Positions 22,047 to 34,721 of a stretch of DNA of 64,000 bases are shown one piece after another. Source of the DNA: a phage; NCBI GenBank assembly GCA_020279385.1, contig GCA_020279385.1_4762.2; one strand, given 5' to 3'. The first letter of the stretch is position 1; the number at the start of each line of letters is the position of its first letter. Both the position numbers and the translations under genes were made by a program. The notes beneath the pieces were generated by a model. It was not told where the DNA came from. It did not search any database and saw only the letters and a program-made list of their open reading frames with translations.

Positions 22047-22211
22047 ATGAAAACTATGAATGTAAACATCCACGAAATCCATACCGAAGTATTCACCGAA
22101 GAAGACCAGTTTGGTGTATGGGTAAATCCTCATTCGATTACTATCGATATTCCTAATGACGATTATGATCCGTTCTCTCTGATTAGCGAGATTAGTTTCA
22201 ATGACTTCTGA
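22047..22211 (+). CDS. hypothetical small protein (54 aa)
   Basis: ATG 22047; acidic; below track cutoff. Confidence 0.35.
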   Translation: MKTMNVNIHEIHTEVFTEEDQFGVWVNPHSITIDIPNDDYDPFSLISEISFNDF

Positions 22212-22680
22212 AATTGATATCTATGCGGGTGGACCTTATCCATCTGGTGAATTGAGTAATTTCAATAAAAGACCATTCCGTCTATTTGGTTGCGATATTA
22301 ACAGCACAGAAGGATTTTTACAGGGGCTAAGATTTAAGAACCCTCAGAGACAAAGAGAAATCTTTTTGATGCACGGTGGCAAAGCAAAAAGAACCGGAAG
22401 AACTGAAAAGATTGAGAATCACATGTTATATTTTCAGGGTCGCCCGATTCATCGAATGAGTGAGCATTATTACAGACTGGTACATCTGGCATTTGTTACG
22501 ATGGCACGGAATAACCCAGAATTTTGTAAAGCATTACTCGCTACCGGAAATAAGAAATTACGTCATAGCATAGGTGGAACTGATCCGTTAAAGACTATAT
22601 TGACTGAATCGGAATTTTGTAGTATCCTCAATGATATTCGTGAACGTTTAACAAAACGAGGTGAAAATGTCAATTCTTAA
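22201..22680 (+). CDS. NADAR / YbiA-like domain protein (putative ADP-ribosyl- or N-glycoside hydrolase)
   Basis: 159 aa; ELSNF...F......STEGFLQGLRF resembles the YbiA/NADAR FSNF...TSEHYFQA.KF core; LLATG and GGTDP segments also align with YbiA-like proteins. Confidence 0.5.
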   Translation: MTSEIDIYAGGPYPSGELSNFNKRPFRLFGCDINSTEGFLQGLRFKNPQRQREIFLMHGGKAKRTGRTEKIENHMLYFQGRPIHRMSEHYYRLVHLAFVTMARNNPEFCKALLATGNKKLRHSIGGTDPLKTILTESEFCSILNDIRERLTKRGENVNS

Positions 22681-24163
22681 TATCATTAACCAGCTTGCAG
22701 CGACCGACAAAACATCGCTGAAAGAAAAGATTCTGAAAGAATCCGCGAGCAATGAAACGCTGAAAGAATGCTTTTATCTGGCATATTGCAAACAGGTTAC
22801 GTTTGGCGTAAAGAAATACGATAAACCATCGCGCTATTCGTCTGTATTGTCTTTATCCGGTGCATTACAGGTCTTTAAAAATAAACTTGCCACGCGTCAA
22901 GTAACTGGTAATGCAGCATTACAGCTAGTTACCGATACTCTGACTTGCTTGTCAGAGGATGATGCTAAAGTTGCAATGATGGTCCTGAATCGTGATCTGG
23001 AATGCGGTTGTTCCGCCACCACTGCAAACAAGGTATGGAAGAAACTGATCCCCCAGCAGCCGTGTCACCTTGCATCGTCATATTCTGATAAGGCTATTGC
23101 TAATATCAAGTATCCGGCGTATGCACAACTTAAAAGCGATGGTGCTCGTGGTATGGCTGATATTGACGGGGAAACATTAGCAATCTATACCCGTTCAGGT
23201 AATACCTATCAGGGACTTGATGATTTGTTTGCGGTTTTAGAGCGTCTACGAGGCCGTGGAATTGTTCTAGATGGCGAATTGGTATATATGCCTACCCTTT
23301 CGCAAACACCAGCGCAGAACTTCGTTGAGAGCGTTTATGATGGTACTCTGTCATGGATATTTGAAGAAGAGGAAATGCCATTAACGCCAGTAGCGGAAGC
23401 AGTAAAAGAATCCGTTGTTGCAGACCGTCAGACCGGAAATGGTATCCTCAACAAATCACTTAAAGGAACTATTCCAAAAGAAGAAGCCCAATGTATTGTT
23501 TATACTGTCTGGGATGTTATCGACCGTGATGTGTATTACGGAAACGAGAAAGCAACGAAGCAATATAAAGATCGATTCGAAGAACTAAAACAGATTGTTG
23601 AAGAACTTAACGATCCTCGTGTTCAGATAATCGAAAATACTGTAGTTAACAATATCGATGAAGCTCGCGAAGTATATCATCGCTATGTAAACATGGGCTT
23701 AGAAGGTATTATCCTTAAAAATTTACATGGTGTATTTGAAGATCGTCGCAGTAAAGATCAGGTTAAATTTAAAGAAGTGATTGACTTCGACGCTGAAATT
23801 GTTGATGTATATCCGCATAGTAAAGATCCTAATAAGGTAGGCGGTTTTACTGTCCGTAGTGCGTGCGGACGAATGATGACTAACACCGGATCGGGATTAA
23901 CCGACACCACAACCGAAAAAGGTGATGATGGTATTGAACGTGTAATTCCGTTCGATCGTCGAAATGAACTCGACCGAGAAATGTTATGGGCTGACCGTCA
24001 TAACCTGATTGGAAAAGTCATTGAGATGACATGCAACGGGTACATTCGCAGCAAATCACGTAAAGAAGATGAACCGGAGTTCTCTTTATTTCTCCCGATC
24101 ATCAAACGTATTCGCTACGACAAGACCACTGCAAATACAGTAAAAGAGGTATTCGATGTGTGA
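22667..24163 (+). CDS. 30: ATP-dependent DNA ligase
   Basis: ~498 aa; KSDGAR adenylation lysine motif, LDGELVY, NGILNKSLKGTIPKEEAQC, GLEGIILKN, KFKEVID, GGF; colinear with T4 DNA ligase; ATG 22667 after RBS GAGGTG. Confidence 0.9.
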   Translation: MSILNIINQLAATDKTSLKEKILKESASNETLKECFYLAYCKQVTFGVKKYDKPSRYSSVLSLSGALQVFKNKLATRQVTGNAALQLVTDTLTCLSEDDAKVAMMVLNRDLECGCSATTANKVWKKLIPQQPCHLASSYSDKAIANIKYPAYAQLKSDGARGMADIDGETLAIYTRSGNTYQGLDDLFAVLERLRGRGIVLDGELVYMPTLSQTPAQNFVESVYDGTLSWIFEEEEMPLTPVAEAVKESVVADRQTGNGILNKSLKGTIPKEEAQCIVYTVWDVIDRDVYYGNEKATKQYKDRFEELKQIVEELNDPRVQIIENTVVNNIDEAREVYHRYVNMGLEGIILKNLHGVFEDRRSKDQVKFKEVIDFDAEIVDVYPHSKDPNKVGGFTVRSACGRMMTNTGSGLTDTTTEKGDDGIERVIPFDRRNELDREMLWADRHNLIGKVIEMTCNGYIRSKSRKEDEPEFSLFLPIIKRIRYDKTTANTVKEVFDV

Positions 24164-24632
24164 TAATGAAGGGGCGAAAGCCCCTAAACCTAAAAAATTG
24201 TCAAAGAAAGAGCAACGCCAGATCCTGAAAATGAAATACGGTGGACGTTGTGCCTATTGTGGCGAGGAACTAGGGGATCGCTGGCACGCAGACCACATCA
24301 AACCAGTATTGCGACGCTCAAAAGTAGTCTATGATGAAAATGGACGAATTGCCCGTAATGATGATGGATCGTGGAAGTATAAGGTTGTAGGAATGCATAA
24401 ACCGGAACATGATATACTTGATAACATGAATCCGTCGTGTGTGCAATGCAATCTTTATAAAAGCTGTATGGGCTTAGAATACTGGCGTAAGTGTATACGC
24501 GAGAACTTCCAGAAATACATTCAGCGCAATATGGGGTTGCGAGCGGCTAAACGCTTTGGCTTACTGTCAATCCACGACCAGCCAGTAGAATTTTATTTCG
24601 AAAAGTATGAGCGCGAGCATCAAGAAAAATAA
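24156..24632 (+). CDS. HNH endonuclease
   Basis: 158 aa; CAYCGEELGDRWHADHIKPV...NMNPSCVQCNLYK HNH zinc-finger nuclease motif; start overlaps ligase stop. Confidence 0.75.
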   Translation: MCDNEGAKAPKPKKLSKKEQRQILKMKYGGRCAYCGEELGDRWHADHIKPVLRRSKVVYDENGRIARNDDGSWKYKVVGMHKPEHDILDNMNPSCVQCNLYKSCMGLEYWRKCIRENFQKYIQRNMGLRAAKRFGLLSIHDQPVEFYFEKYEREHQEK

Positions 24633-24645
24633 TTCAAAAAAGTTG

Positions 24646-24674
24646 TTGACAGGGGATCACCGATCCCCTATACT
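24646..24674 (+). promoter_or_regulatory. PeSL-like promoter cassette (TTGACA-17-TATACT)
   Basis: Palindromic spacer GGGGATCACCGATCCCC; leader acacataccgaaacgaactaggagaatcaa. Confidence 0.7.
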
Positions 24675-24708
24675 ACACACATACCGAAACGAACTAGGAG
24701 AATCAATT

Positions 24709-24888
24709 ATGAACTTCAACGAAATCATCGCTAAAATCCGCTACAACGAAGAAACCATTGAACTGATGCAAAACAATATCACCAATGGTTATATGATTGC
24801 AGCGTCACAAGAAATCATTGATTTGACGGTAGCAGAAAATGCTCAGTTGAAACATCAACTTTCAACGGCTGGCGTGATTGTTATGTAA
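24709..24888 (+). CDS. hypothetical small protein (59 aa)
   Basis: ATG 24709 after cassette leader; track start 24607 precedes the promoter. Confidence 0.45.
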   Translation: MNFNEIIAKIRYNEETIELMQNNITNGYMIAASQEIIDLTVAENAQLKHQLSTAGVIVM

Positions 24889-24905
24889 TAAAGAGAGGTG
24901 ACTAA

Positions 24906-25208
24906 ATGGCAAAAGTTAAGGTAGGCGAGGTCTTCAAAATGGAAGACCACACCGTGGAAGAGATGAAAGGCGCAGTATTGAAAGTAACTAATTCAATGTG
25001 TCGTAGTGTGCTTTACATCAACTTTATAGACGGTGATGTGTGGTGGGCTAGCGATAGCGATAAATGGGATATCAAGTTCTACAAAGGTCATACTCACTGG
25101 TTAGGAACAGAGGATGTTGTAGAAGTTCTGGCGGTTGATGTTATGCCAGGCGAGATCGAAAGTCTTAGCGGAACCGCAAAAGAAGCATTGACACGCCATT
25201 TTGTGTGA
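24906..25208 (+). CDS. small protein, HxHW-LAVDV paralog family member
   Basis: 100 aa; C-terminal KGHTHWLGTEDVVEVLAVDV motif shared with five neighbouring ORFs. Confidence 0.5.
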   Translation: MAKVKVGEVFKMEDHTVEEMKGAVLKVTNSMCRSVLYINFIDGDVWWASDSDKWDIKFYKGHTHWLGTEDVVEVLAVDVMPGEIESLSGTAKEALTRHFV

Positions 25209-25214
25209 TATAAT
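25188..25214 (+). promoter_or_regulatory. possible sigma70-like promoter (TTGACA-15-TATAAT)
   Basis: TTGACA 25188-25193, TATAAT 25209-25214; short spacer, followed by hairpin GGGAG...CTCCC. Confidence 0.35.
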
Positions 25215-25265
25215 ATAACAATCATTGGGAGGGGTAATACTCTCCCACAAATTGAGGATAATATT

Positions 25266-25457
25266 ATGTGTGGTCTTAAAATGGTTGCTGAATATAAGCG
25301 AACTGGTAATATTATTATGTATCGACGCAATGCCAACGAAGACTGGAAACCTTCCAACCGCATTAAATCCATCCAGACGTTTATGAATAACATCAAAGAA
25401 AACCTTTTCGTTAAGCGTGTTGGCGCTGAACATTGGGAAGTTTACGAAGCTGTATAA
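25266..25457 (+). CDS. hypothetical small protein (63 aa)
   Basis: RBS GAGGA + ATG. Confidence 0.45.
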   Translation: MCGLKMVAEYKRTGNIIMYRRNANEDWKPSNRIKSIQTFMNNIKENLFVKRVGAEHWEVYEAV

Positions 25458-25473
25458 TTTTGAGGAAAATATT

Positions 25474-25776
25474 ATGGAACGTACCAATTTGTTTGTAACC
25501 GAACCTTTCGTTGAAGGAAACAAGAACCTTGCTAATACGGTTATTCTTTACGAAGATTGGATCTTTTACATCGATGAGAATTTAGATGTATATTGTCGTC
25601 CAACCCCAAATGACTCATTCTATATCGAAGAAAACGATACCCATAATCATTGGTATGACGGAAACGACGAAACCGATCTTGCTATTGTTCTCGAATCCGG
25701 CGTAGAATCGGAACATGCCGATGAAGTAGCAGACAAATTTATGAAATACGCATATAAAGATAAAGTTGAAGAATAA
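25474..25776 (+). CDS. small protein, HxHW paralog family member
   Basis: 100 aa; WIFYIDENLDVY and THNHWYDG...LAIVLE motifs; ATG 25474 (track start 25417 is inside previous gene). Confidence 0.5.
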   Translation: MERTNLFVTEPFVEGNKNLANTVILYEDWIFYIDENLDVYCRPTPNDSFYIEENDTHNHWYDGNDETDLAIVLESGVESEHADEVADKFMKYAYKDKVEE

Positions 25777-25784
25777 AAAAGTTG

Positions 25785-25813
25785 TTGACAGGGGATCGGT
25801 GATCCCCTATAAT
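25785..25813 (+). promoter_or_regulatory. PeSL-like promoter cassette (TTGACA-17-TATAAT)
   Basis: Palindromic spacer GGGGATCGGTGATCCCC; near-identical to cassettes at 29045 and 31421. Confidence 0.75.
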
Positions 25814-25846
25814 GCACACATACCAACGAGATATAGGAGAATCAAA

Positions 25847-26014
25847 ATGTTCCAGACTAAAGCAGAATGCGAAGCATACATTGTAGCAAACCACGGTGAA
25901 GACTACCTGAAATTCGATATCGTAGTAGCACAGAAGATCACCGGAATGGTTGCAAAATATCTAGGTGTTAAAGAAGGTTACTATCCAAGCAACGCACCAG
26001 AAATTAACAAATAA
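25847..26014 (+). CDS. hypothetical small protein (55 aa), paralog of the 29107 ORF
   Basis: MFQTKAECEAYIVANHGEDYLKFDIVVAQK... about 85% identical to the 29107 product. Confidence 0.5.
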   Translation: MFQTKAECEAYIVANHGEDYLKFDIVVAQKITGMVAKYLGVKEGYYPSNAPEINK

Positions 26015-26017
26015 TAG

Positions 26018-26046
26018 TTGACAATGATTAAAGGGAGTAGTAAGAT
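26018..26046 (+). promoter_or_regulatory. PeSL-like promoter cassette (TTGACA-17-TAAGAT)
   Basis: Hairpin GGGAGTA...TACTCCC spans -10; leader catcaagacaacaaacggagaatcaaa. Confidence 0.6.
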
Positions 26047-26078
26047 ACTCCCATCAAGACAACAAACGGAGAATCAAA

Positions 26079-26258
26079 ATGAAAGCTATCGAAGTTCAGA
26101 AGTACATGGAACTCATCATTGAAGGTAAAGCACATACAGTATTGACTACCAACGTAGGATATGATAAAAATGTGCATATGCTGGTAGACAATATCGGCTG
26201 GATGAAGTTTAATCCTAATGAGAATGTACAAGCTCAAGAAATGACCATCCCTTTCTAA
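26079..26258 (+). CDS. hypothetical small protein (59 aa)
   Basis: ATG after cassette leader; below track cutoff. Confidence 0.4.
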   Translation: MKAIEVQKYMELIIEGKAHTVLTTNVGYDKNVHMLVDNIGWMKFNPNENVQAQEMTIPF

Positions 26259-26270
26259 GAGGAATATATT

Positions 26271-26549
26271 ATGATGCGAATTACTGCAACGCTGGATAAG
26301 ACACACAAAGAAAGATTTTTCGGTATGATCTTAAAAACGCCGATTTTCGATAATTACCTTTATGTTGACTATGAAGGCCATATTAGCTATAAATGTAAAA
26401 ATGATATTCGTGATTCCTTTGGTGATAAATCACAAGCTGATATTCACGATCATTGGTGGACCTTCGACGAACCTTTACGGATTATCGCAGTTGATGTAAA
26501 AACAATAAAAGAAGCTGATAAGGTAGTTAACGATTATGAGCAAATTTAA
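26271..26549 (+). CDS. small protein, HxHW-LAVDV paralog family member
   Basis: 92 aa; YLYVDYEGHISY and IHDHWWTFDEPLRIIAVDV. Confidence 0.5.
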   Translation: MMRITATLDKTHKERFFGMILKTPIFDNYLYVDYEGHISYKCKNDIRDSFGDKSQADIHDHWWTFDEPLRIIAVDVKTIKEADKVVNDYEQI

Positions 26550-26745
26550 AGACTATAAAGCATATCAACAGATCCTGCGAGTATACGCACCAGAGTTCGC
26601 CGAAAAGATGATGGAAGATGCATCAAAATGCCCGTCCTTTTCTGGAAACAAAAACCATTATTCGACTGGTATTGTGTCATGGAAAGAAACCGCATATACT
26701 CAACAATGGATAGATGTGTTTTCAAAAACTCTTGAGTGGTGTTAA
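26536..26745 (+). CDS. hypothetical small protein (69 aa), tandem paralog A
   Basis: MSKFKDYKAYQ... shares N-terminus and Cys/Trp pattern with next ORF. Confidence 0.5.
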   Translation: MSKFKDYKAYQQILRVYAPEFAEKMMEDASKCPSFSGNKNHYSTGIVSWKETAYTQQWIDVFSKTLEWC

Positions 26746-26747
26746 TT

Positions 26748-26963
26748 ATGAGCAAATTTAAAGATTATCGAGCATATAAAGCGATCTGCGATATATTCGA
26801 TGAAAAGACCGCTCATGAAATGATGGAAGATGCAGAACAATATGAATCATTCGTCAATTCCAAAGATTGCACAGTAAACGGGATTGTGTGCTGGAAAGAT
26901 ACAAAGTATGAAGAAAAATGGATTACCGTGTATTACGGAGAACTAGAATATGAAATTAACTAA
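26748..26963 (+). CDS. hypothetical small protein (71 aa), tandem paralog B
   Basis: MSKFKDYRAYK...; ATG 26748. Confidence 0.5.
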   Translation: MSKFKDYRAYKAICDIFDEKTAHEMMEDAEQYESFVNSKDCTVNGIVCWKDTKYEEKWITVYYGELEYEIN

Positions 26964-27270
26964 AAAGATTTTCCCAGAATTGCGTAACTGTCTGTTATTG
27001 GTTACTGAATATAAGCCGTATACGATCTACTTGTATGTTGATGAAAATCTGAAAATCCGTTACTATGATTATACGTCTCCAGTGATGAAATCATTTGCTC
27101 ACTCGATAGCAAATAACTGTATGAATCACAATCATTGGGTATCAGAAACGGATGACGATGCGTCAGAAGTTGTAGTGGTTGCATGGAATCTATCACCAGC
27201 GGAAGCAGATCAAGCACGCATTAAGCATTATGCGAAAAACAATTGGTTTGACCTTATAAGTGAGGACTAA
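26950..27270 (+). CDS. small protein, HxHW paralog family member
   Basis: 106 aa; IYLYVDENLKIRYYDY and NHNHWVSE...VVVVAWN. Confidence 0.5.
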   Translation: MKLTKKIFPELRNCLLLVTEYKPYTIYLYVDENLKIRYYDYTSPVMKSFAHSIANNCMNHNHWVSETDDDASEVVVVAWNLSPAEADQARIKHYAKNNWFDLISED

Positions 27271-27274
27271 TATT

Positions 27275-27553
27275 ATGTTCAAAGTAGGTGATAAGTTTAT
27301 TCTTAGTCGTGATATTCTCCCTAATCTGAAAGGTTGTATCATCAATCCTAGTAAAAATTCATGGTTTTATCTGTTTATCGACGACAAACTGAATGTACGC
27401 GCAGAATATAAAGAAGGTCTTCGTACTGGTCTAGGTTTCTTTCACGATCATGATCATAGCCATTGGTTAAACGGTGGATTCGAAGCAACGGTGCTAGCGG
27501 TTGACGTGACCTACACAAACATCATAGAAAAATATCAAAAAATTATTTTATAA
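27275..27553 (+). CDS. small protein, HxHW-LAVDV paralog family member
   Basis: 92 aa; WFYLFIDDKLNV and HDHSHWLNGGFEATVLAVDV; ATG 27275 with RBS GTGAGGA. Confidence 0.5.
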   Translation: MFKVGDKFILSRDILPNLKGCIINPSKNSWFYLFIDDKLNVRAEYKEGLRTGLGFFHDHDHSHWLNGGFEATVLAVDVTYTNIIEKYQKIIL

Positions 27554-27559
27554 AAAGTG

Positions 27560-27588
27560 TTGACACCGGATCGGGGATATAGCATAAT
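27560..27588 (+). promoter_or_regulatory. PeSL-like promoter cassette (TTGACA-17-CATAAT)
   Basis: Hairpin GGGGATAT...ATATCCCC spans -10; leader catcgaaacgagataca...aggagaatcaaa. Confidence 0.7.
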
Positions 27589-27634
27589 ATCCCCATCGAA
27601 ACGAGATACACTTTCTAACTAGGAGAATCAAATT

Positions 27635-27922
27635 ATGGCATACATTACTATCACTCTGAAAGTTAACAAATTTGCTCACGCTGCACACGAAACAGACAAT
27701 GCAATCCGTAACAACAAGTTCGCACGTCTGGTACGCGATGCAGTAGCTAAAGAGTTCAACTTCAAATTTGCAGACGGTAAAGTTATCACTAAATGGACTC
27801 ATGACGGAGAAACTAAAGTAGAACTTGCTGATAACTTCGCAAATCAGGAATATGCACACCGTCGCATTAATGAAATTATCAGCGATGAACTCTACTACGG
27901 TGTACAGGAAGGACTGTTTTAA
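27635..27922 (+). CDS. hypothetical protein (95 aa)
   Basis: ATG after cassette. Confidence 0.5.
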   Translation: MAYITITLKVNKFAHAAHETDNAIRNNKFARLVRDAVAKEFNFKFADGKVITKWTHDGETKVELADNFANQEYAHRRINEIISDELYYGVQEGLF

Positions 27923-27927
27923 TATAC

Positions 27928-27952
27928 GGGGCGTTAAGCCCCACCCCTTTTC
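27928..27952 (+). terminator. rho-independent terminator
   Basis: GGGGC-GTTAA-GCCCC hairpin then ACCCCTTTTCAT; same hairpin recurs at 31705. Confidence 0.65.
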
Positions 27953-27975
27953 ATCCAACTATTGAGGATAATACT

Positions 27976-28284
27976 ATGAAAGATAATATCTTTGAATTTA
28001 CCCGCGAAAATCTCCCAATGTTCCGAAAGTCTCTGCTTAAACTAGAGAACAGCAATTACAACGTATATTTTTACATCACCGAAGACCTAGAGATCCTTTA
28101 CGCAGATTATCCAGGTCCGATCCGTACCTTCGAAGAAGCATCGCAGTATAAAAATGTTCACGGTCATGAGCACTGGTTACGAGAAAACCCAGGTCGCAAG
28201 AAAGCACGCGTTAAAGTGTTGGCGATTGACATAACACCAGCATACGCCGACCGGATTGCACTGAATGATTATTTGTCTAAATGA
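27976..28284 (+). CDS. small protein, HxHW-LAxD paralog family member
   Basis: 102 aa; VYFYITEDLEILYADY and HGHEHWL...KVLAIDI. Confidence 0.5.
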   Translation: MKDNIFEFTRENLPMFRKSLLKLENSNYNVYFYITEDLEILYADYPGPIRTFEEASQYKNVHGHEHWLRENPGRKKARVKVLAIDITPAYADRIALNDYLSK

Positions 28285-28292
28285 TTTCATTA

Positions 28293-28320
28293 GCCGACCT
28301 TAGTGTCGGCTTTTTTATTT
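28293..28320 (+). terminator. rho-independent terminator
   Basis: GCCGAC-CTTAGT-GTCGGC hairpin followed by TTTTTTATTT. Confidence 0.8.
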
Positions 28321-28339
28321 CCAAAAATTAAAAAAGTTG

Positions 28340-28368
28340 TTGACACCTGATCACGCCTATAGCACAAT
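28340..28368 (+). promoter_or_regulatory. PeSL-like promoter cassette (TTGACA-17-CACAAT)
   Basis: Same architecture and leader (acacatcgaaacgagataccacttaggagaatcaaa); -10 slightly degenerate. Confidence 0.55.
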
Positions 28369-28408
28369 ACACACATCGAAACGAGATACCACTTAGGAGA
28401 ATCAAACA

Positions 28409-28678
28409 ATGGCACTGACTAAAACCACTACCAACTTTGCAAAACGTCACGGCTTCGACCTTGAAATCAATAGCTTTAACGATTACACCCTTCTGTGTGT
28501 ATATGAAATCGAAAATGATTGCGAGTGGATGTTCAGCTATCGCGTAAACGAAGACGGATCTTTCACTTGGAACGGAAATATCTATCTTGCACAGGAAGTA
28601 AAAGAAGAACTTCCGGCGACTATCAAAGATGAGAAACATTTACGTCAAGTTTTAAAATTTATTTCTGAAAATATCTAA
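28409..28678 (+). CDS. hypothetical protein (89 aa)
   Basis: ATG after cassette. Confidence 0.5.
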   Translation: MALTKTTTNFAKRHGFDLEINSFNDYTLLCVYEIENDCEWMFSYRVNEDGSFTWNGNIYLAQEVKEELPATIKDEKHLRQVLKFISENI

Positions 28679-28686
28679 AAAAGTTG

Positions 28687-28715
28687 TTGACACCAAAGTA
28701 AGAACATAGCATAAT
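28687..28715 (+). promoter_or_regulatory. PeSL-like promoter cassette (TTGACA-17-CATAAT)
   Basis: Leader acacataccgaaacgaactggagaatcaaa. Confidence 0.65.
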
Positions 28716-28748
28716 ACACACATACCGAAACGAACTGGAGAATCAAAA

Positions 28749-29030
28749 ATGAAATTCATCAAAGCAACCGAAATCCTGAAAAACAAAGAAGCATACATCG
28801 GAAACATCGTTGGTATGAACATTCGCGGCGCTGGTAGCCAGTGGACCAAACTGGTTGATGTTAAAGCTAAAGGCGATAAAATTGAGTTCACTGTAAAAAT
28901 GCTTACTCATAACGCACATATGGGTATCAAGACAAAAACGATGGCCGCAGATAAAAGCATCAACTATCAAGATCTGGGCGATTGGTTGAACTGGTGCAAA
29001 ATGCACAACATCGAAACTAATCACGAATAA
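28749..29030 (+). CDS. hypothetical protein (93 aa)
   Basis: ATG after cassette. Confidence 0.5.
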   Translation: MKFIKATEILKNKEAYIGNIVGMNIRGAGSQWTKLVDVKAKGDKIEFTVKMLTHNAHMGIKTKTMAADKSINYQDLGDWLNWCKMHNIETNHE

Positions 29031-29044
29031 TTTTAAAAAAGTTG

Positions 29045-29073
29045 TTGACGGGGATCGGGAGATCCCCTATAAT
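29045..29073 (+). promoter_or_regulatory. PeSL-like promoter cassette (TTGACG-17-TATAAT)
   Basis: Palindromic spacer GGGATCGGGAGATCCCC; copy of the 25785 cassette. Confidence 0.7.
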
Positions 29074-29106
29074 ACACACATAACGAAACGAAATAGGAGA
29101 ATCAAA

Positions 29107-29274
29107 ATGTTCGAGACTAAAGCAGCATGTGAAGCATATATCATTGAAACCCACGGCGAAGATTATCTGAAATTTGACATTGTAGTAGCACAGAAGATTG
29201 TAGGGATGGTTGCGAAATACCTCGGAGTTAAAGAAGGTTACTATCCTAGCAACGCACCAGAAATTAACAAATAA
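29107..29274 (+). CDS. hypothetical small protein (55 aa), paralog of the 25847 ORF
   Basis: MFETKAACEAYIIETHGEDYLKFDIVVAQK...; below track cutoff. Confidence 0.5.
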   Translation: MFETKAACEAYIIETHGEDYLKFDIVVAQKIVGMVAKYLGVKEGYYPSNAPEINK

Positions 29275-29288
29275 TTTTATAAAAAGTG

Positions 29289-29317
29289 TTGACAGGGGAG
29301 GATAACTCCCCTACAAT
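29289..29317 (+). promoter_or_regulatory. PeSL-like promoter cassette (TTGACA-17-TACAAT)
   Basis: Palindromic spacer GGGGAGGATAACTCCCC; leader caaccatcaagacgagataccacttaggagaatcaaa. Confidence 0.65.
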
Positions 29318-29357
29318 ACAACCATCAAGACGAGATACCACTTAGGAGAATCAAACA

Positions 29358-29609
29358 ATGGCTAACATCGAAACCGCAAAGAAAATCGCTAAAGACCTGA
29401 ACGTTAAAGGCTTCCGTAAACTGAAATTACAGCGTGTACGCTACACCATCGGCAAACAGTGCTCTTTCATGAGCGAAGAAGTTGCTAACAGCCTCATTGA
29501 TAACCTGATTGCGGCTGGCTGGGAAGTTGCGGATCTGAAAACTTGCCGCGAACTGGCTAACAAAGGTCTTTTAGATTCTGTTACTATCAAACCAATGGGG
29601 GCAGCGTGA
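29358..29609 (+). CDS. hypothetical protein (83 aa)
   Basis: Starts MANIE, sharing its first 16 nt with the 31486 ORF. Confidence 0.5.
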   Translation: MANIETAKKIAKDLNVKGFRKLKLQRVRYTIGKQCSFMSEEVANSLIDNLIAAGWEVADLKTCRELANKGLLDSVTIKPMGAA

Positions 29610-29851
29610 AAAGAAAATTAATTAAACGCAATAAGGAATTTCTTAATAACTGCATTAAGGCCGCTAATGGTTGGCCTTTGTTCCTCTTCCTTTATGATTG
29701 GTATTCTAAACAATCGGTAGAGGAAACACGACACTATAAGAAGATCAGAAAAGAATCATATACAAAACAAGGCCGCATTAACGGACTTTACTTAATGTGG
29801 CACGGCAAAGAACCTTCTAAAATCTGTGTTGGATTAAAGGGGCGTATATGA
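29606..29851 (+). CDS. hypothetical basic protein (81 aa)
   Basis: GTG start overlapping previous stop; Lys/Arg-rich; uncertain. Confidence 0.35.
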   Translation: MKRKLIKRNKEFLNNCIKAANGWPLFLFLYDWYSKQSVEETRHYKKIRKESYTKQGRINGLYLMWHGKEPSKICVGLKGRI

Positions 29852-30564
29852 AACAAAAATTAATATTCTGCAACTTTGACGGATCGGGGATAATGGGGCT
29901 AGAATGGGCTAAAGCAGGTCATAAGGTGATCTGCTTTAATGCTGACGATGGCGACCACGGCACATACAAAAAGTATAATACCCGATTTGAACATCCAAAC
30001 ATTACCTATGTAAACACATGGATTGATTTGAACTGGCTGGAAAGAGCAATGGACCTTGAATGGGGGAAACCGGATATTATCTTTGCATTCCCACCGTGCA
30101 CCAATTTAGCTGTTAGTGGCGCTGCACACTTTGAACGAAAGAAACGAGAACAAGGACCATTGATTCAAGTTCATGATGTAAGGGCAGCTAAAATAACCGC
30201 TTATTTGGGTGAATGGCTAGGAGTTCCCTACATGATAGAGAATCCTGTAAGCGTTATCTCTAGCATGTGGCGTAAGCCTGATTATATGTTCCATCCGTGG
30301 GAATATGGTGGTTATTTGCCGGAAGATGATAAGCATCCTACGTTTCCTGAGTATATTGCCGCCCGTGATATGTACCCGAAAAAGACTTGCTTATGGACCG
30401 GACAAGGCTTTATGATGCCAGAAAAGAAACCTTTGCAGATTAATAAAGGGTACAGTAAACAGCATTCTAAGCTAGGCGGGAAAGGAACGAAAACAAAGAC
30501 TATAAGGTCACTTACCCCGCGAGGATTCGCAAAGGCAGTATTTGAAGCCAATAAGGATCTATGA
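29848..30564 (+). CDS. C5-cytosine methyltransferase-like protein (compact, no obvious target-recognition domain)
   Basis: 238 aa; motif I-like IFCNFDGSGIMG, motif IV-like FPPCTNLAVSG (Pro-Cys), motif VI-like ENPVSV, motif X-like RSLTPRGFAKAVF. Confidence 0.5.
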   Translation: MKQKLIFCNFDGSGIMGLEWAKAGHKVICFNADDGDHGTYKKYNTRFEHPNITYVNTWIDLNWLERAMDLEWGKPDIIFAFPPCTNLAVSGAAHFERKKREQGPLIQVHDVRAAKITAYLGEWLGVPYMIENPVSVISSMWRKPDYMFHPWEYGGYLPEDDKHPTFPEYIAARDMYPKKTCLWTGQGFMMPEKKPLQINKGYSKQHSKLGGKGTKTKTIRSLTPRGFAKAVFEANKDL

Positions 30565-30893
30565 TGAGATTGTTTAAGTATTCGCTAACGTCAAATTACG
30601 ATAAACAAGGTCATTGCATCCGTTGCCCTGATTGTCATAGCCATAACATCGAAAGCAAGATCACCGATCATATTGATGGACTTTGGTCGCCAGCAAGTGA
30701 AATAGAATACTATTGCTCTGATTGTGGAATTGTAGTAGCATATTGGGCATACGGATCATATGATCCATACTTCCAGATGGGAGAGCGTTCAATCCCTGCG
30801 CTCATCTGGAGAATTAAGAACAATATCCGCCATTCATGGGATGAGTTCTTAAAAGATATTGATTTACGTGATGATCCATTCAGGAGACTATAA
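30561..30893 (+). CDS. Zn-ribbon protein (110 aa)
   Basis: CIRCPDCHSH ... CSDCG; two CxxC pairs; translationally coupled to flanking genes. Confidence 0.5.
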   Translation: MMRLFKYSLTSNYDKQGHCIRCPDCHSHNIESKITDHIDGLWSPASEIEYYCSDCGIVVAYWAYGSYDPYFQMGERSIPALIWRIKNNIRHSWDEFLKDIDLRDDPFRRL

Positions 30894-30894
30894 C

Positions 30895-31413
30895 ATGAAC
30901 CGTTTAACGCCTAAACGCCGCTACTATACCAATACTAAAAACTTTGTTATCTCTGTTTACGAAGCATGGTTAGAAGATGGCTATATCAACATGAACCCAG
31001 ATTATCAGCGTCCTTTAGTATGGGACACCGAAAACAAACGTATGTTTATTGAAAACCTGATTAATGATTTTCCGGTTGGTGCTATCGCAATGGCTAAGAT
31101 TGATGATGGCTCTCGCTATGAGATCGAAATCGTGGACGGTAAACAGCGTTTAAACGCAATATTCTCCTTTATGAAGGATGAGTTTAGCATTGCCGGTAAT
31201 GATGATTCTATGTTGTATTACAGTGATTTTACGCCAGCAGAAAAGCGACGTTTCCGAAATCTCGGACTACCCGCGATCATGATGGAAGAGAGCACACGAG
31301 AAGACCGATTAGAGTATTTCTACAAAACAAACTTTTTCGGTGTGCCTCAATCGGAAGAACATCGCCAGCATGTGATTGCCCTATTGCAAGATGAGCAATT
31401 AAAAAATAACTAA
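30895..31413 (+). CDS. DUF262 / ParB-like domain protein (DGQQR-type motif)
   Basis: ~173 aa; NPDYQRPLVW and EIVDGKQRLNAIFSF resemble the DUF262 DGQQR signature; ATG 30895 with RBS CAGGAGAC. Confidence 0.55.
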   Translation: MNRLTPKRRYYTNTKNFVISVYEAWLEDGYINMNPDYQRPLVWDTENKRMFIENLINDFPVGAIAMAKIDDGSRYEIEIVDGKQRLNAIFSFMKDEFSIAGNDDSMLYYSDFTPAEKRRFRNLGLPAIMMEESTREDRLEYFYKTNFFGVPQSEEHRQHVIALLQDEQLKNN

Positions 31414-31420
31414 AAAGTTG

Positions 31421-31449
31421 TTGACAGGGGATCGGTGATCCCCTATAAT
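31421..31449 (+). promoter_or_regulatory. PeSL-like promoter cassette (TTGACA-17-TATAAT)
   Basis: Spacer GGGGATCGGTGATCCCC identical to the 25785 cassette. Confidence 0.75.
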
Positions 31450-31485
31450 GCACACATACCGAAACGAACTACTAAGGAGTATCAA

Positions 31486-31698
31486 ATGGCTAACATCGAA
31501 ATCATCATTACCGACGTAACTTATGACCGCATTAACGAAATCGGTACTGCATTACTGGAAGATGGAACAACTCGTACCATCAACTACGCAGAATACGTTG
31601 AAATGCGTGGTTGTATTAAACGAGTAGGAAAATATACCCTGATTGAAAAAGACTATTCAGGATACACCTTAGAGCAATTGCTTGATGGTGCATTATAA
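31486..31698 (+). CDS. hypothetical protein (70 aa)
   Basis: ATG 31486 after cassette; starts MANIE like the 29358 ORF; track start 31435 lies in the promoter. Confidence 0.5.
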   Translation: MANIEIIITDVTYDRINEIGTALLEDGTTRTINYAEYVEMRGCIKRVGKYTLIEKDYSGYTLEQLLDGAL

Positions 31699-31704
31699 TA
31701 AAAA

Positions 31705-31728
31705 GGGGGCGTTAAGCCCCGTTTTCAT
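31705..31728 (+). terminator. rho-independent terminator
   Basis: GGGGGC-GTTAA-GCCCC hairpin followed by GTTTTCAT. Confidence 0.7.
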
Positions 31729-31766
31729 AAATATAGGTTTATAGGTTATCAACTAGAGGATATAAA

Positions 31767-33818
31767 ATGTTTAACTTAGAAATCGACGATCTAATGATTG
31801 AATCTTTCGAGAAATGGCTGTTGACGGAAGAGGAAGAAAACTTTGGCAGTATTGCTCCTGTACAGTGCTTAAAGCCTAAGCAGAATCCTAAACAGCTTTT
31901 TGCAGTACAGACACGCGATAAAGATGTGATTGTCCGTCTTTGCAACTTCACCAACAAAACACCTAAAATCATTCGTATGGGCGACAAGACCGCACATGTT
32001 GTACTGTGCGAAATGAACAAAAGCGGTCGTATTGTACAGCTTAAAAATGGTCTAGGCGATAACCCGATTGCAGTCATGGCAAGTGCTTTTGATGTGGTTA
32101 TGGAAACAGCCCGTAAAGCGCAATTAGACGCTGTTATGTTCCGTTTTAACGTATCCCGCATGAAAGGTAAGACCGAACTGATTAAGCGCGTTATAGAGCG
32201 TTTGGTGCGTCGTACACCGAAGTTTGAAGTATTCCAGCAGGAAGTAATGACCAGCAAAAAGATCGCTTTAGTTGTTGTCAAGCGTCGCGGGATAGCGATT
32301 GATAAGATTAAAGGGATTAAACTTGATGAATCCTTGTTCACTAAAGTAGAAAGTGATTTAGGTGATCGCTGGGTATCTAAGGCTACTGGTGAATCTCTGA
32401 CTAAAGATGAAGCGTATGCGGCTAGTCTTGTGTCAGAAGAAGAACGAAACGCGGAAGCAGAACAACGCGTAGCGGCTAAATCTCGTTTGACTAAAGAAGA
32501 AATGCTGAAAACTCAAGCGACCTATAACAGCGACTATGTGAATCATCCAGAAAAAATTAATCTTAAACCGGAAGAAGATATCACCGAAGCCGAACCTAAG
32601 AAACAGTTTAATACTCTGATTGACCGTCAAGCCTTAGAACGTTCAACCGCCCGTTCTCTGAATGACTGGACAAGTGATATTATCACTCGCTATGGTTTCA
32701 TGCGTACTATTTTTGAAAGCGAAGCCGATGCAAAATACGCAGTAAGCGAACTGGTAAAAGTTCAGGATCAATATGATCCGTTGTCTGCGGAAGTTATCGC
32801 AGCATCAATCAAACGCTTAAAAGAAATCATGAGCGAGGAAGTATTCGAAAACAAGATCACCGCCCTGGCAATGGATCGAGTAGACCAGTCTATGCCAGCA
32901 GATGTAAAAGCTGAAATGCTGCGTAGTCATATCACCCAGATTAAAACCGATGCCCTACGTAATGTTGCTTCCGGTATGTTTGAAGCAATTGCTAGCAACA
33001 TGGGTGAAATGATGGCAGATATTGATCTTGATCTGCCAGGTGCGGAAGGTTTTGTGTTGAGCGAATATGCGGATGCAGCATACATCAATATGAACAACTT
33101 CCTAACCGACCGTAAGCTGGAAGAATTTGATGGTATCGCAGATCCAGAAGAATTGGTCAAGATGTGCGATGCACTGGATAATGCCTTCTCTAACTATGGT
33201 GTTAAACTTGATCCGGGTACTATTCTGTATCGTGGTATGGACTTCCGGTCTCAAATGTGGGAAACTGCACGTAAGCAAAAAGCGTTTTACTTTAAAAACT
33301 ATGTGAGCACTTCCCTTGCACCTAACATTTTTGGCGGCTGGAATGCAAACGTGGCTAGTGCCGTTGCTGGTGTTGATTCTATGGCTGGCTCTCGCGGTGA
33401 AGGTGGCGCTAATGTTGCTTTCTCCATTGCTGGCGCGGAAAACATCCCTGTATTGCCAGTAGGTAACAAAGCATTTGCTTACAAAGAATGCGAGATTTTA
33501 CTTCCTCGCGGTGTTGTGTTATCCTTTGATACGGTAACTCGTGCTACGGCATCGACGGATTCACAAGAAACTTATTACATTGAGGCACATATTATGAACA
33601 AAAATGAACTGGCAGCATTACAAGAATCTGGCGAGATGATCGCGGACGGTGATGCATTCATCCGTGAAGGTGTTGTTAAACCTGCTTCTGACCTGTCTTT
33701 CTCCAGCTTTATTACCGAAGCTAAAACCGAACGTAAGAAAGCAGATAAGGCAACTCTACGTCAGCTTATCGCTGATCTGGTATCTGTAGACGCAATGCCA
33801 GATAAATTTAAAATGTAA
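31767..33818 (+). CDS. alt: ADP-ribosyltransferase Alt
   Basis: 683 aa (T4 Alt ~682 aa); C-terminal R-S-ExE ART triad (LYRGMDF, YVSTSL, KECEILLPRG); position next to ligase region and gene 54 as in T4. Confidence 0.75.
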   Translation: MFNLEIDDLMIESFEKWLLTEEEENFGSIAPVQCLKPKQNPKQLFAVQTRDKDVIVRLCNFTNKTPKIIRMGDKTAHVVLCEMNKSGRIVQLKNGLGDNPIAVMASAFDVVMETARKAQLDAVMFRFNVSRMKGKTELIKRVIERLVRRTPKFEVFQQEVMTSKKIALVVVKRRGIAIDKIKGIKLDESLFTKVESDLGDRWVSKATGESLTKDEAYAASLVSEEERNAEAEQRVAAKSRLTKEEMLKTQATYNSDYVNHPEKINLKPEEDITEAEPKKQFNTLIDRQALERSTARSLNDWTSDIITRYGFMRTIFESEADAKYAVSELVKVQDQYDPLSAEVIAASIKRLKEIMSEEVFENKITALAMDRVDQSMPADVKAEMLRSHITQIKTDALRNVASGMFEAIASNMGEMMADIDLDLPGAEGFVLSEYADAAYINMNNFLTDRKLEEFDGIADPEELVKMCDALDNAFSNYGVKLDPGTILYRGMDFRSQMWETARKQKAFYFKNYVSTSLAPNIFGGWNANVASAVAGVDSMAGSRGEGGANVAFSIAGAENIPVLPVGNKAFAYKECEILLPRGVVLSFDTVTRATASTDSQETYYIEAHIMNKNELAALQESGEMIADGDAFIREGVVKPASDLSFSSFITEAKTERKKADKATLRQLIADLVSVDAMPDKFKM

Positions 33819-33835
33819 TTTTTAAGAAATAATGG

Positions 33836-33864
33836 TTGACTCAAACGGGGACTAGTTTTATACT
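33836..33864 (+). promoter_or_regulatory. sigma70-type promoter (TTGACT-17-TATACT); its hairpin may also terminate alt
   Basis: Imperfect hairpin CGGGGACTAG...CTAGCCCCG followed by TTTTCTGTT. Confidence 0.55.
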
Positions 33865-33896
33865 AGCCCCGTTTTCTGTTATATGGGAGGTTTAAA

Positions 33897-34721
33897 ATGT
33901 TCAAACAATTACAGGATTTTCGTCTTTCAGAAGAATCACGCGAATCAATGATGGAACGTATGGACAATTATATTGAAACATATGACATTGAGGGGATTAA
34001 TGGTTACATGATCACTGAGATGATCAGCGATCAGATTAACTTTGATGATTATGTGAAGGTTATCCGCTTCCTTGAGCGTGAGACACAAGATTATGGATTT
34101 GTCAAGAAAATCATTAATGTGATGTATGAAGTACACTCCGAAGACTTTGGAGATAATGTATTCAAACATTACAAACATAACAACATAACCCCAGCAGAAT
34201 ATAATGCAATCTGTGATTATGTATCTGAACAATACGAATGGGTAAATGGTGCTCTCTTAGGGGAAGAAGACATGACCGATGAGATATCAGAGATTGTCGA
34301 TTTGATGGATTGCGTCATGGATAAAACCGAAAAGTTAAACGGTACTCTTTATCGCGGTCAACATCTTGACATTCAGACAATAGAGCGCATCATTGAAGAT
34401 AAGGAGTTTACCTTTAAAAACTTTGTATCGACCAGCATGACACCGATCATCTTTGGAGGATGGCTATCAAACAGCACTAGCCTTTATTGTGAGAATCGAT
34501 ATGAATCAATGACCGGAAAGATGCAACATTCTTGTAATGTATCATGGGTAATTGACGTAAAAGATCATAAAGGTTTTGTTGTTGGGTCAATTGCATGGAA
34601 CCCTTGCGAATGTGAAGTAATTTTACCGCGCGGGACTTGCGTCAAGGTAAACGACGTAGTAGAATCTTTCGGCGATGAGAATCGTAGACAATTTACAATT
34701 TTCGGTGAGGTGACTAAATGA
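33897..34721 (+). CDS. Alt/Mod-like ADP-ribosyltransferase (second ART paralog)
   Basis: 274 aa; R-S-ExE triad (TLYRGQHL, FVSTSMTPIIFGGW, CECEVILPRG) parallels Alt C-terminus. Confidence 0.65.
   Translation: MFKQLQDFRLSEESRESMMERMDNYIETYDIEGINGYMITEMISDQINFDDYVKVIRFLERETQDYGFVKKIINVMYEVHSEDFGDNVFKHYKHNNITPAEYNAICDYVSEQYEWVNGALLGEEDMTDEISEIVDLMDCVMDKTEKLNGTLYRGQHLDIQTIERIIEDKEFTFKNFVSTSMTPIIFGGWLSNSTSLYCENRYESMTGKMQHSCNVSWVIDVKDHKGFVVGSIAWNPCECEVILPRGTCVKVNDVVESFGDENRRQFTIFGEVTK

Follow-up and report, generated by a model that had tools for sequence, protein, structure and literature searches.

Six open reading frames (ORFs) located between positions 24,906 and 28,284 of a 64,000-nucleotide stretch of phage DNA (NCBI GenBank assembly GCA_020279385.1, contig GCA_020279385.1_4762.2; this whole stretch is referred to below as the window) are confirmed here as true paralogs of one protein family, derived by repeated duplication and divergence. 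The members form a lineage-specific paralogous family of soluble single-domain α+β proteins of about 100 amino acids (aa), and the three alignment columns that are invariant among them (MAFFT) are the two histidines and the tryptophan of an H-x-H-W motif. The genes themselves are known sequences, and what is new is their union as one well-delimited family, representing an ORFan paralog expansion that is probably expressed early. We designate the members m1 to m6 in their order along the window:

24906-25208, plus strand: m1, 100 aa, motif GHTHW, ortholog of RB49 ORF208c; second gene after a putative promoter-early stem-loop (PeSL) at 24621-24696
25474-25776, plus strand: m2, 100 aa, motif THNHW, ortholog of RB49 ORF206c; net charge -18, isoelectric point 4.15
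26271-26549, plus strand: m3, 92 aa, motif IHDHW, ortholog of RB49 ORF203c
26950-27270, plus strand: m4, 106 aa, motif NHNHW, ortholog of RB49 ORF200c; first 14 nucleotides (nt) shared with the end of the upstream ORF
27275-27553, plus strand: m5, 92 aa, motif HDHDHSHW, ortholog of RB49 ORF199c; begins 4 nt past the m4 stop codon
27976-28284, plus strand: m6, 102 aa, motif HGHEHW, ortholog of RB49 ORF197c; the member modelled with AlphaFold

Homology, motif register and predicted fold

The original prediction had described six related ORFs here from their motifs, and the ORF listing of the window contains all of them on the plus strand, with starts at 24906, 25474, 26271, 26950, 27275 and 27976. 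A Shine-Dalgarno site is present for each of the six; in m2 and m5 it is a GAGG lying 6-9 nt 5' of the predicted ATG, which favours that start over the longer ORFs opening with GTG. Sequence identity between the paralogs is 20–30%, and BLASTP between members was weak, with clear pairs only for m4-m6 (2e-12) and m5-m6 (1e-4). Leave-one-out profile searches were decisive. Hidden Markov models (HMMs) built with one member omitted were run against the 602 six-frame ORFs of the window, and in six of six cases the omitted member was the top non-training match (E = 1.6e-4 for m1, 4.2e-4 for m2, 6.2e-5 for m3, 1.3e-10 for m4, 5.6e-8 for m5 and 5.9e-13 for m6), compared with E >= 0.14 for the best nonmember ORF in every search. 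The predicted six-member homology was thus upheld, and HMM searching of the same ORFs found no seventh family member in the window. The pattern H.HW occurs six times in these ORFs (52,510 residues), once per member and nowhere else, against 0.47 occurrences expected from composition. The subfamilies are bridged by a diverged fusion protein from a metagenomic contig (L002), with BLASTP matches to m5 (2e-7), m2 (7e-6), m4 (3e-4) and m3 (7e-4).

In MAFFT alignments the shared motifs fall in a single conserved register. The elements run from an N-terminal strand/helix through a '(Y/F)LY(I/V)D(E/D)xL' β-hairpin, a variable loop and the H-x-H-W motif to a '(V/I)LA(V/I)D(V/I)' strand and a C-terminal 'AD....Y' helix. 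The claim that all of these motifs are common to the six members holds for H-x-H-W and requires qualification for the rest: the aromatic strand, typically YLY(V/I)D-like, is degenerate in m1 (VLYINF), as is the VLAVDV strand in m2 (VLESGV) and m4 (VVAWNL). In a 25-row alignment the tryptophan and the second histidine are invariant, the first histidine being missing in one distant member, P0082. Variability within subfamilies peaks in the ~15 residues preceding HxHW (residues 48-62 of m6), where mean entropy is ~0.6 vs ~0.15 elsewhere, and the same segment has the lowest predicted local distance difference test (pLDDT) score in the m6 model. Since the motif is invariant and the variability is concentrated just before it, the pattern suggests a conserved functional element beside a specificity loop. 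No hydrophobic segments were found in the family proteins, and no cysteine is conserved across the family alignment. Net charge in the window ranges from -18 (m2) to ~0 (m5 and m6), metagenomic relatives having values as high as +3; for m2 and its relatives the range is -12 to -18.

Invariant histidines raise the question of catalysis, and one explanation is that the proteins are small His- or metal-dependent enzymes using HxH as a catalytic or metal site for a nucleotide or small molecule. Beyond the invariance of H-x-H-W, this would fit the extra alternating histidines of m5 (HDHDHSHW) and m6 (HGHEHW) and the semi-conserved acidic residues in the β3-β4 hairpin. Familiar patterns of this kind are H-φ-H-φ-H-φ-φ (HφHφHφφ) in HIT proteins, H-x-T/S occurring twice in 2H proteins, and G(x)5HxH(x)3-4E within a double-stranded β-helix in cupins. 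The family sequence does not fit the HIT, 2H or cupin pattern. Moreover, just three residues are invariant, conserved cysteines, aspartates and glutamates are lacking, the domain is very small, and six paralogs with divergent surfaces would be unusual for an enzyme, so that we regard a catalytic role as rather improbable.

The original prediction recognized no characterized domain in these proteins, and the database searches agreed. Scans of the members against Pfam, NCBIfam and PADLOC, the last of which holds defence proteins and not anti-defence proteins, gave sub-threshold noise only. In PHROGs, by contrast, each member strongly matched one group (E 1e-48 to 1e-65) out of phrog_9345, phrog_17255, phrog_15972, phrog_15965 and phrog_16486, all labelled 'unknown function'. 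The members were therefore already catalogued there, but with the family divided over five groups without annotation; m4 and m6 share one group, and weak cross-matches (E 7e-5 to 1e-2) tie m2, m4 and m5 to other groups. The RB49 orthologs of all six are likewise annotated 'hypothetical protein'.

An AlphaFold2 model of m6 computed from a 24-sequence alignment is confident (pLDDT 85.3, predicted template modelling score 0.80) and contains β5-7, α13-16, β19-23, β29-34, β40-45, α52-56, α65-68 (which carries HxHW), β78-84 and α88-100. On this model, the family fold is predicted to be a five-stranded β-sheet plus a C-terminal helix, with H-x-H-W in a short helix following the most variable loop. 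Foldseek searches with the m6 model found nothing in the PDB at E < 0.5. In BFVD the same model matched Krischvirus paralogs at 20-31% identity (E 1e-7 to 1e-4, template modelling score up to 0.77), and every match at E <= 0.02 that carried an organism name was from Krischvirus, at 16-31% identity, with the exception of one m6 ortholog at 76%. Because the BFVD models of the paralogs match that of m6, the common fold is independently confirmed. Neither sequence nor structure revealed significant similarity to known anti-defence protein families, including Ocr/Arn-type DNA mimics, Acr proteins and Tad/Acb sponges. Small phage inhibitors such as AcrIIA7, Tad2 and the Tas1 immunity protein were among the nearest characterized proteins considered for comparison.

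When the PDB was searched by sequence profile, the best match was the Tudor-like repeat of Spindlin-1 at E = 1.6, which is not significant. This match bears on a further explanation, in which the members would be nucleic-acid- or RNA-polymerase-binding regulators with a KOW/Tudor/SH3-like small barrel as their scaffold and would tune phage or host expression. The N-terminal 45 residues, with V-G-D, a hydrophobic strand, Y-L-Y-I-D and V-x-Y, do recall the first four strands of KOW/Tudor-like (Spindlin) barrels; V-G-(D/E)-x-(F/L/V) followed by hydrophobic strands is present in m1, m5 and the first domain of the tandem fusion P0076, and one source labels the ortholog P0072 'KOW2-KOW3 domains of Spt5'. 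However, the V-G-D element is missing from m2, m3, m4 and m6, the Pfam KOW, Tudor and SH3 models gave no match, and the C-terminal HxHW-β-α half has no counterpart in such barrels. Most members are also acidic, which argues against nucleic-acid binding, and altogether a barrel-based regulator seems quite unlikely.

Distribution, age and selection

In an exhaustive profile search the family was found only in Krischvirus and a few uncultured relatives that encode two to six domains each, in one case as a tandem fusion. A word-seeded search of 5.8 billion proteins returned 75 matches, each an ortholog of one of the six members, and a second such search, seeded from alignment A3, added just two divergent alleles of the m3 slot. 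Profile searching of 1.84 billion cluster representatives returned 19 at E <= 1e-3, including one artefact (P0080); the others were Krischvirus or short metagenomic proteins, and those contigs that were examined show the same T4-like locus. A tblastn search of GenBank phages with the divergent protein P0087 gave Krischvirus records only, and no loci related to P0087 or P0076 were found in IMG/VR. T4 has no detectable homolog, the best match of the family HMM to all ORFs of ~133 kb covering its early and middle regions being E 0.21.

P0080 (1034 aa), with E 1e-12, was rejected as a chance match, as its score is the sum of seven near-identical repeats of no more than 12.6 bits each, without the W register. 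It is a eukaryote-like repeat protein whose CDF..CGW element resembles, by eye, a MAM domain, and it serves as a warning on summed scores for repeat proteins.

Three loci illustrate the range of the uncultured relatives. The 20-kb contig L003, with ligase 72% and gp48/gp54 82% identical to the window and the ligase ... alt synteny kept, has two m2-like family members. The 2.1-kb contig L002 (Logan SRR8048117) has five domains in four ORFs, with orthologs of m1, m3 and m4 at 46%, 38% and 44% identity; one ORF of 203 aa (823-1434) holds two family domains in tandem and is either a genuine fusion, hinting at dimerization, or an ORF whose stop codon was lost in a single metagenomic assembly. The third, the Krischvirus-like genome L010, has its m3 slot occupied by a divergent allele. 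Since orthologs of m1, m3 and m4 are recognizable in L002, the duplications predate the split of the L002 and Krischvirus lineages.

Among Krischvirus isolates, conservation per paralog is 80-100%, and the gene-wide ratio of nonsynonymous to synonymous substitution (dN/dS) per paralog is 0-0.48, typically 0.1-0.2, beside 0.03 for the ligase. Pooled dN/dS is 0.22 in the variable loop vs 0.14 in the remainder, and we consider the loop relaxed or variable, not positively selected. Individual slots have turned over: in phage JSE the m5 ortholog is absent, two m4-like copies stand in its place and m6 is frameshifted; in kvi m6 is truncated; and the m2 and m3 slots carry divergent alleles, the m2 allele of the window being strongly diverged from other Krischvirus (synonymous divergence, dS, 0.5-1.6). 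These data show that the copies are ancient and each under purifying selection, with individual ones occasionally lost or swapped. Of the 'repeated duplication and diversification' read from the sequence originally, duplication and divergence therefore stand, but an ongoing arms race does not, given the orthologs in L002 and L003, the gene-wide dN/dS range and the modest value for the loop.

Genomic setting and transcription units

The 3.6-kb region containing the array has 92-95% DNA identity to 59 GenBank records, every one from Krischvirus (RB49, phi1, JSE and ECD7 among them), and on nucleotide sequence the window is assigned to this genus of RB49-like T-even coliphages. The array sits between gp30 DNA ligase (22661-24163) and alt (31767-33818) and is syntenic with RB49 ORF197c-208c. 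In T4, alt.1 is the sole gene between ligase and alt; therefore, the array belongs to a Krischvirus-specific hyperplastic region. From the gp30 ligase to the alt paralog (22661-34721) the interval has grown to about 27 ORFs in the window. On its 5' side the array is preceded by gp30.3, the DNA ligase gp30 and an HNH endonuclease (24156-24632), and on its 3' side it is followed by a gene annotated as DNA methyltransferase/Dcm, a Zn-ribbon protein, a GmrSD_N/DUF262 protein, alt and the alt paralog. The gp30.3 homolog (22201-22680; Pfam Phage_30_3, E 1e-38) shares 20 nt with the start of the ligase gene and has been kept from T4 to Krischvirus.

Throughout the region runs a repeated cassette of the form 'AAAAAGTTGTTGACA-GGGGATC...GATCCCC-TATAAT...AGGAGAATCAAA-ATG', which we identify by its sequence elements with the PeSLs of Arbiol et al. 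2010 (PMC2839356). In RB49 and phi1, PeSLs (PeSL206/205 included) were found by experiment to be strong sigma70 promoters and terminators, and they mediate cassette shuffling and mini-circle formation (PMC2839356). In the window, the repeats start at 24621, 25760, 27548, 28328, 28662, 29020, 29277 and 31396, with a PeSL-like promoter at 26018. The features around the six members are as follows:

24621-24696, plus strand: PeSL cassette with A-rich tract, TTGACA, GGGGATC...GATCCCC stem-loop, TATACT and Shine-Dalgarno site; heads 24709-24888 and then m1
24709-24888, plus strand: ORF of 59 aa unrelated to the family, predicted to be co-transcribed 5' of m1; its neighbour order with the m1 ortholog is kept in L002
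25188-25216, plus strand: sigma70-like promoter match, TTGACA-17-TAATAT, inside the m1 3' end and 5' of 25266-25457 and then m2
25760-25835, plus strand: PeSL cassette in the same position as RB49/phi1 PeSL206/205, between the m2 ortholog and the ORF that follows; ends the m2 unit and heads 25847-26014
26018-26060, plus strand: PeSL-like promoter, TTGACA-17-TAAGAT, the -10 element being covered by a GGGAGTA/TACTCCC stem
26079-26258, plus strand: ORF of 59 aa unrelated to the family, 5' of m3; in L002, too, an ortholog of this ORF stands first in a series of family members
27548-27609, plus strand: PeSL cassette closing the m3-m5 unit; heads 27635-27922 and then m6
27635-27922, plus strand: ORF of 95 aa unrelated to the family, directly 5' of m6
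28292-28311, plus strand: intrinsic-terminator-like hairpin and T-run, 8 nt past the m6 stop codon
29848-30564: putative DNA methyltransferase/Dcm; the label comes from relatives JSE and kaaroe, Pfam giving no match here
30561-30893: Zn-ribbon protein
30895-31413: GmrSD_N/DUF262 protein

The unit behind the 26018 promoter is tightly packed, comprising 26079-26258, m3, 26536-26745, 26748-26963, m4 and m5, with overlaps of 14 nt between the 26536 ORF and the end of m3 and, again, between m4 and the end of the 26748 ORF. Family members are second or later genes of such short PeSL- or promoter-headed units and never stand first behind a PeSL. A toxin-antitoxin-like pairing with a homologous small upstream partner was considered and rejected, as the upstream ORFs are mutually unrelated and conservation of the pairing is incomplete. 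No T4-type late promoter TATAAATA was found in or near the array on the plus strand. Because PeSL cassettes flank the units and this late promoter is absent from the array, we infer that host sigma70 RNA polymerase probably transcribes the genes from PeSL early promoters as soon as infection begins.

This promoter arrangement also bears on whether the members could be packaged internal or virion proteins that are injected with the DNA, in the manner of the T4 IP family. Small size, diversification and a part in counter-defence are features of the T4 internal proteins as well, and alt, a packaged enzyme, lies 3' of the array. With early-type promoters only, no late promoter, N-termini that are not conserved and no shared capsid-targeting leader in the alignment, such a role is highly improbable.

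In several respects the array is like the PeSL-associated ORFans of RB49 and phi1, which are small PeSL-bounded genes in the same genus and genome region (PMC2839356), non-essential and shuffled between isolates, as is the setting of this family. It combines the location, the flanking PeSLs and the narrow distribution without a homolog of known function that mark a PeSL-bounded hyperplastic ORFan cassette. Unlike those ORFans, however, the family members are mostly the second or a later gene and not directly behind a PeSL. Neither the six ORFs nor such a family turned up in a text search of that study and of Nolan et al. 2006 (PMC1524935). Literature searches on Krischvirus anti-defence and on RB49 paralog families likewise found nothing on these genes. 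Comeau et al. 2014 is reportedly a second paper on PeSL-associated ORFans.

A location among recombining cassettes could also mean that the members are functionless or selfish ORFan cargo that PeSL recombination has moved along and multiplied, or even spurious ORFs. The region is rich in PeSLs, which shuffle cassettes (PMC2839356), a PeSL cassette has recently been duplicated nearby, and some members are broken in some phages. Against this stand the Shine-Dalgarno site at every member, the dN/dS values of 0-0.48, the confident predicted fold and the retention of orthologs in relatives whose ligase is just 72% identical, so that this explanation is already disfavoured and, in our judgement, very improbable.

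The recent duplication is a direct repeat of 242 nt at 84% identity (25774-26015 and 29034-29275) that comprises a PeSL and a 55-aa ORF (25847-26014/29107-29274, 89% aa identity), and hence an entire PeSL cassette of the same hyperplastic region. Between m3 and m4 lie two tandem paralogous ORFs (26536-26745 and 26748-26963; 69 and 71 aa, beginning MSKFKDY..., 46% identity) with a relative in L003 (9451-9660, 31-38% identity), the 26748 ORF of the window being a strongly diverged allele (dS 1.6 vs RB49). The cassette duplication and this tandem pair show that gene duplication continues in the region. Among the small genes there, the ORFan at 27635-27922 stands out as much the most constrained, with dN = 0 against five Krischvirus genomes at dS 0.11-0.21; it is 71% identical in L003 and has no Pfam domain. 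Two minus-strand ORFs, 25101-25523 (140 aa) and 27548-27958 (136 aa), lie opposite well-supported plus-strand genes and are probably not coding.

Candidate roles of the array

We tentatively favour the reading, plausible though short of probable, that the members are early cytoplasmic accessory proteins acting by binding, with HxHW as a shared site and with loop and charge setting the targets. Under this proposal, each copy would be a stoichiometric binder of some macromolecule or ligand in the cytoplasm, whether from the host, a defence system or the phage. HxHW would be the common functional site, contacting a metal or a phosphate/nucleotide or serving as a hot-spot contact, and the two subunits of a dimer might jointly complete it at their interface, a possibility hinted at by the tandem fusion. 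The hypervariable loop and the differing surface charge would give each paralog its own specificity. From a binding role, a shared site and paralog-specific loops and charge it would follow that the family consists of conditionally useful accessory factors (for host takeover or counter-defence) as opposed to core-metabolism enzymes or virion parts.

Several points weigh against this reading. (i) No homology was found that links any member to a target. (ii) Positive selection, which an arms-race effector might be expected to show, was detected neither gene-wide nor in the variable loop. (iii) The invariant HxHW residues could be purely structural, and two invariant histidines alone are insufficient for an intramolecular metal site. 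(iv) The case for dimerization comes from a single fused ORF on one short metagenomic contig, and the single-sequence AlphaFold model of this fusion, computed without an alignment, has a pLDDT of 34.

The original prediction went further and saw in the duplicated array the pattern of host-interaction or anti-defence effectors. As a dedicated anti-defence set, each paralog would inhibit a different bacterial immune system; the acidic m2, for example, could be a DNA-mimic anti-restriction protein, and other members oligomeric sponges for nucleotide immune signals with a His/Trp pocket. RB49 DNA contains unmodified cytosine (PMC4041780), and for this reason the phage is exposed to restriction. 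The same region holds a gene annotated as a methyltransferase in relatives and a GmrSD_N-like gene, which, with the unmodified DNA, would fit a need for accessory protection. Probable early expression from a non-essential hyperplastic region, the net charge of the m2 subfamily, and the differences in copy number between lineages, with single members lost or replaced, would all suit anti-defence proteins. On the other side, similarity to known anti-defence proteins is not significant, dN/dS is well below 1, and strong acidity is limited to the m2 subfamily. We consider a dedicated set of this kind unlikely, and an anti-defence role of the family in general is a guess.

A bolder form of the idea, which we regard as speculative and improbable, is that the family may represent a new fold class of early counter-defence proteins. 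These would form dimers or oligomers in which HxHW, with or without a metal, is a common pocket that takes up nucleotide-derived immune signals or serves as a hot-spot on immune nucleases, the loop and charge would provide per-paralog targets, and the whole would offset the missing cytosine hypermodification.

Here, six separately filed 'hypothetical proteins', spread over five PHROGs, are united as one family with clear handles for further work: a confident predicted fold without significant PDB match, a motif of three invariant residues and a defined variable loop. Hyperplastic regions of T-even phages contain many small early genes, and those that have been solved often proved to be host-takeover or counter-defence factors. 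As the DNA of RB49 is unmodified and can be cleaved by Cas9, genetic experiments on the array are feasible (PMC4041780). Should the array prove to be an anti-defence toolkit, it would shed light on the way in which a T4-like phage lacking hydroxymethylcytosine withstands host immunity; otherwise, it would still provide a clean case of ancient paralog expansion in a PeSL-shuffled region.

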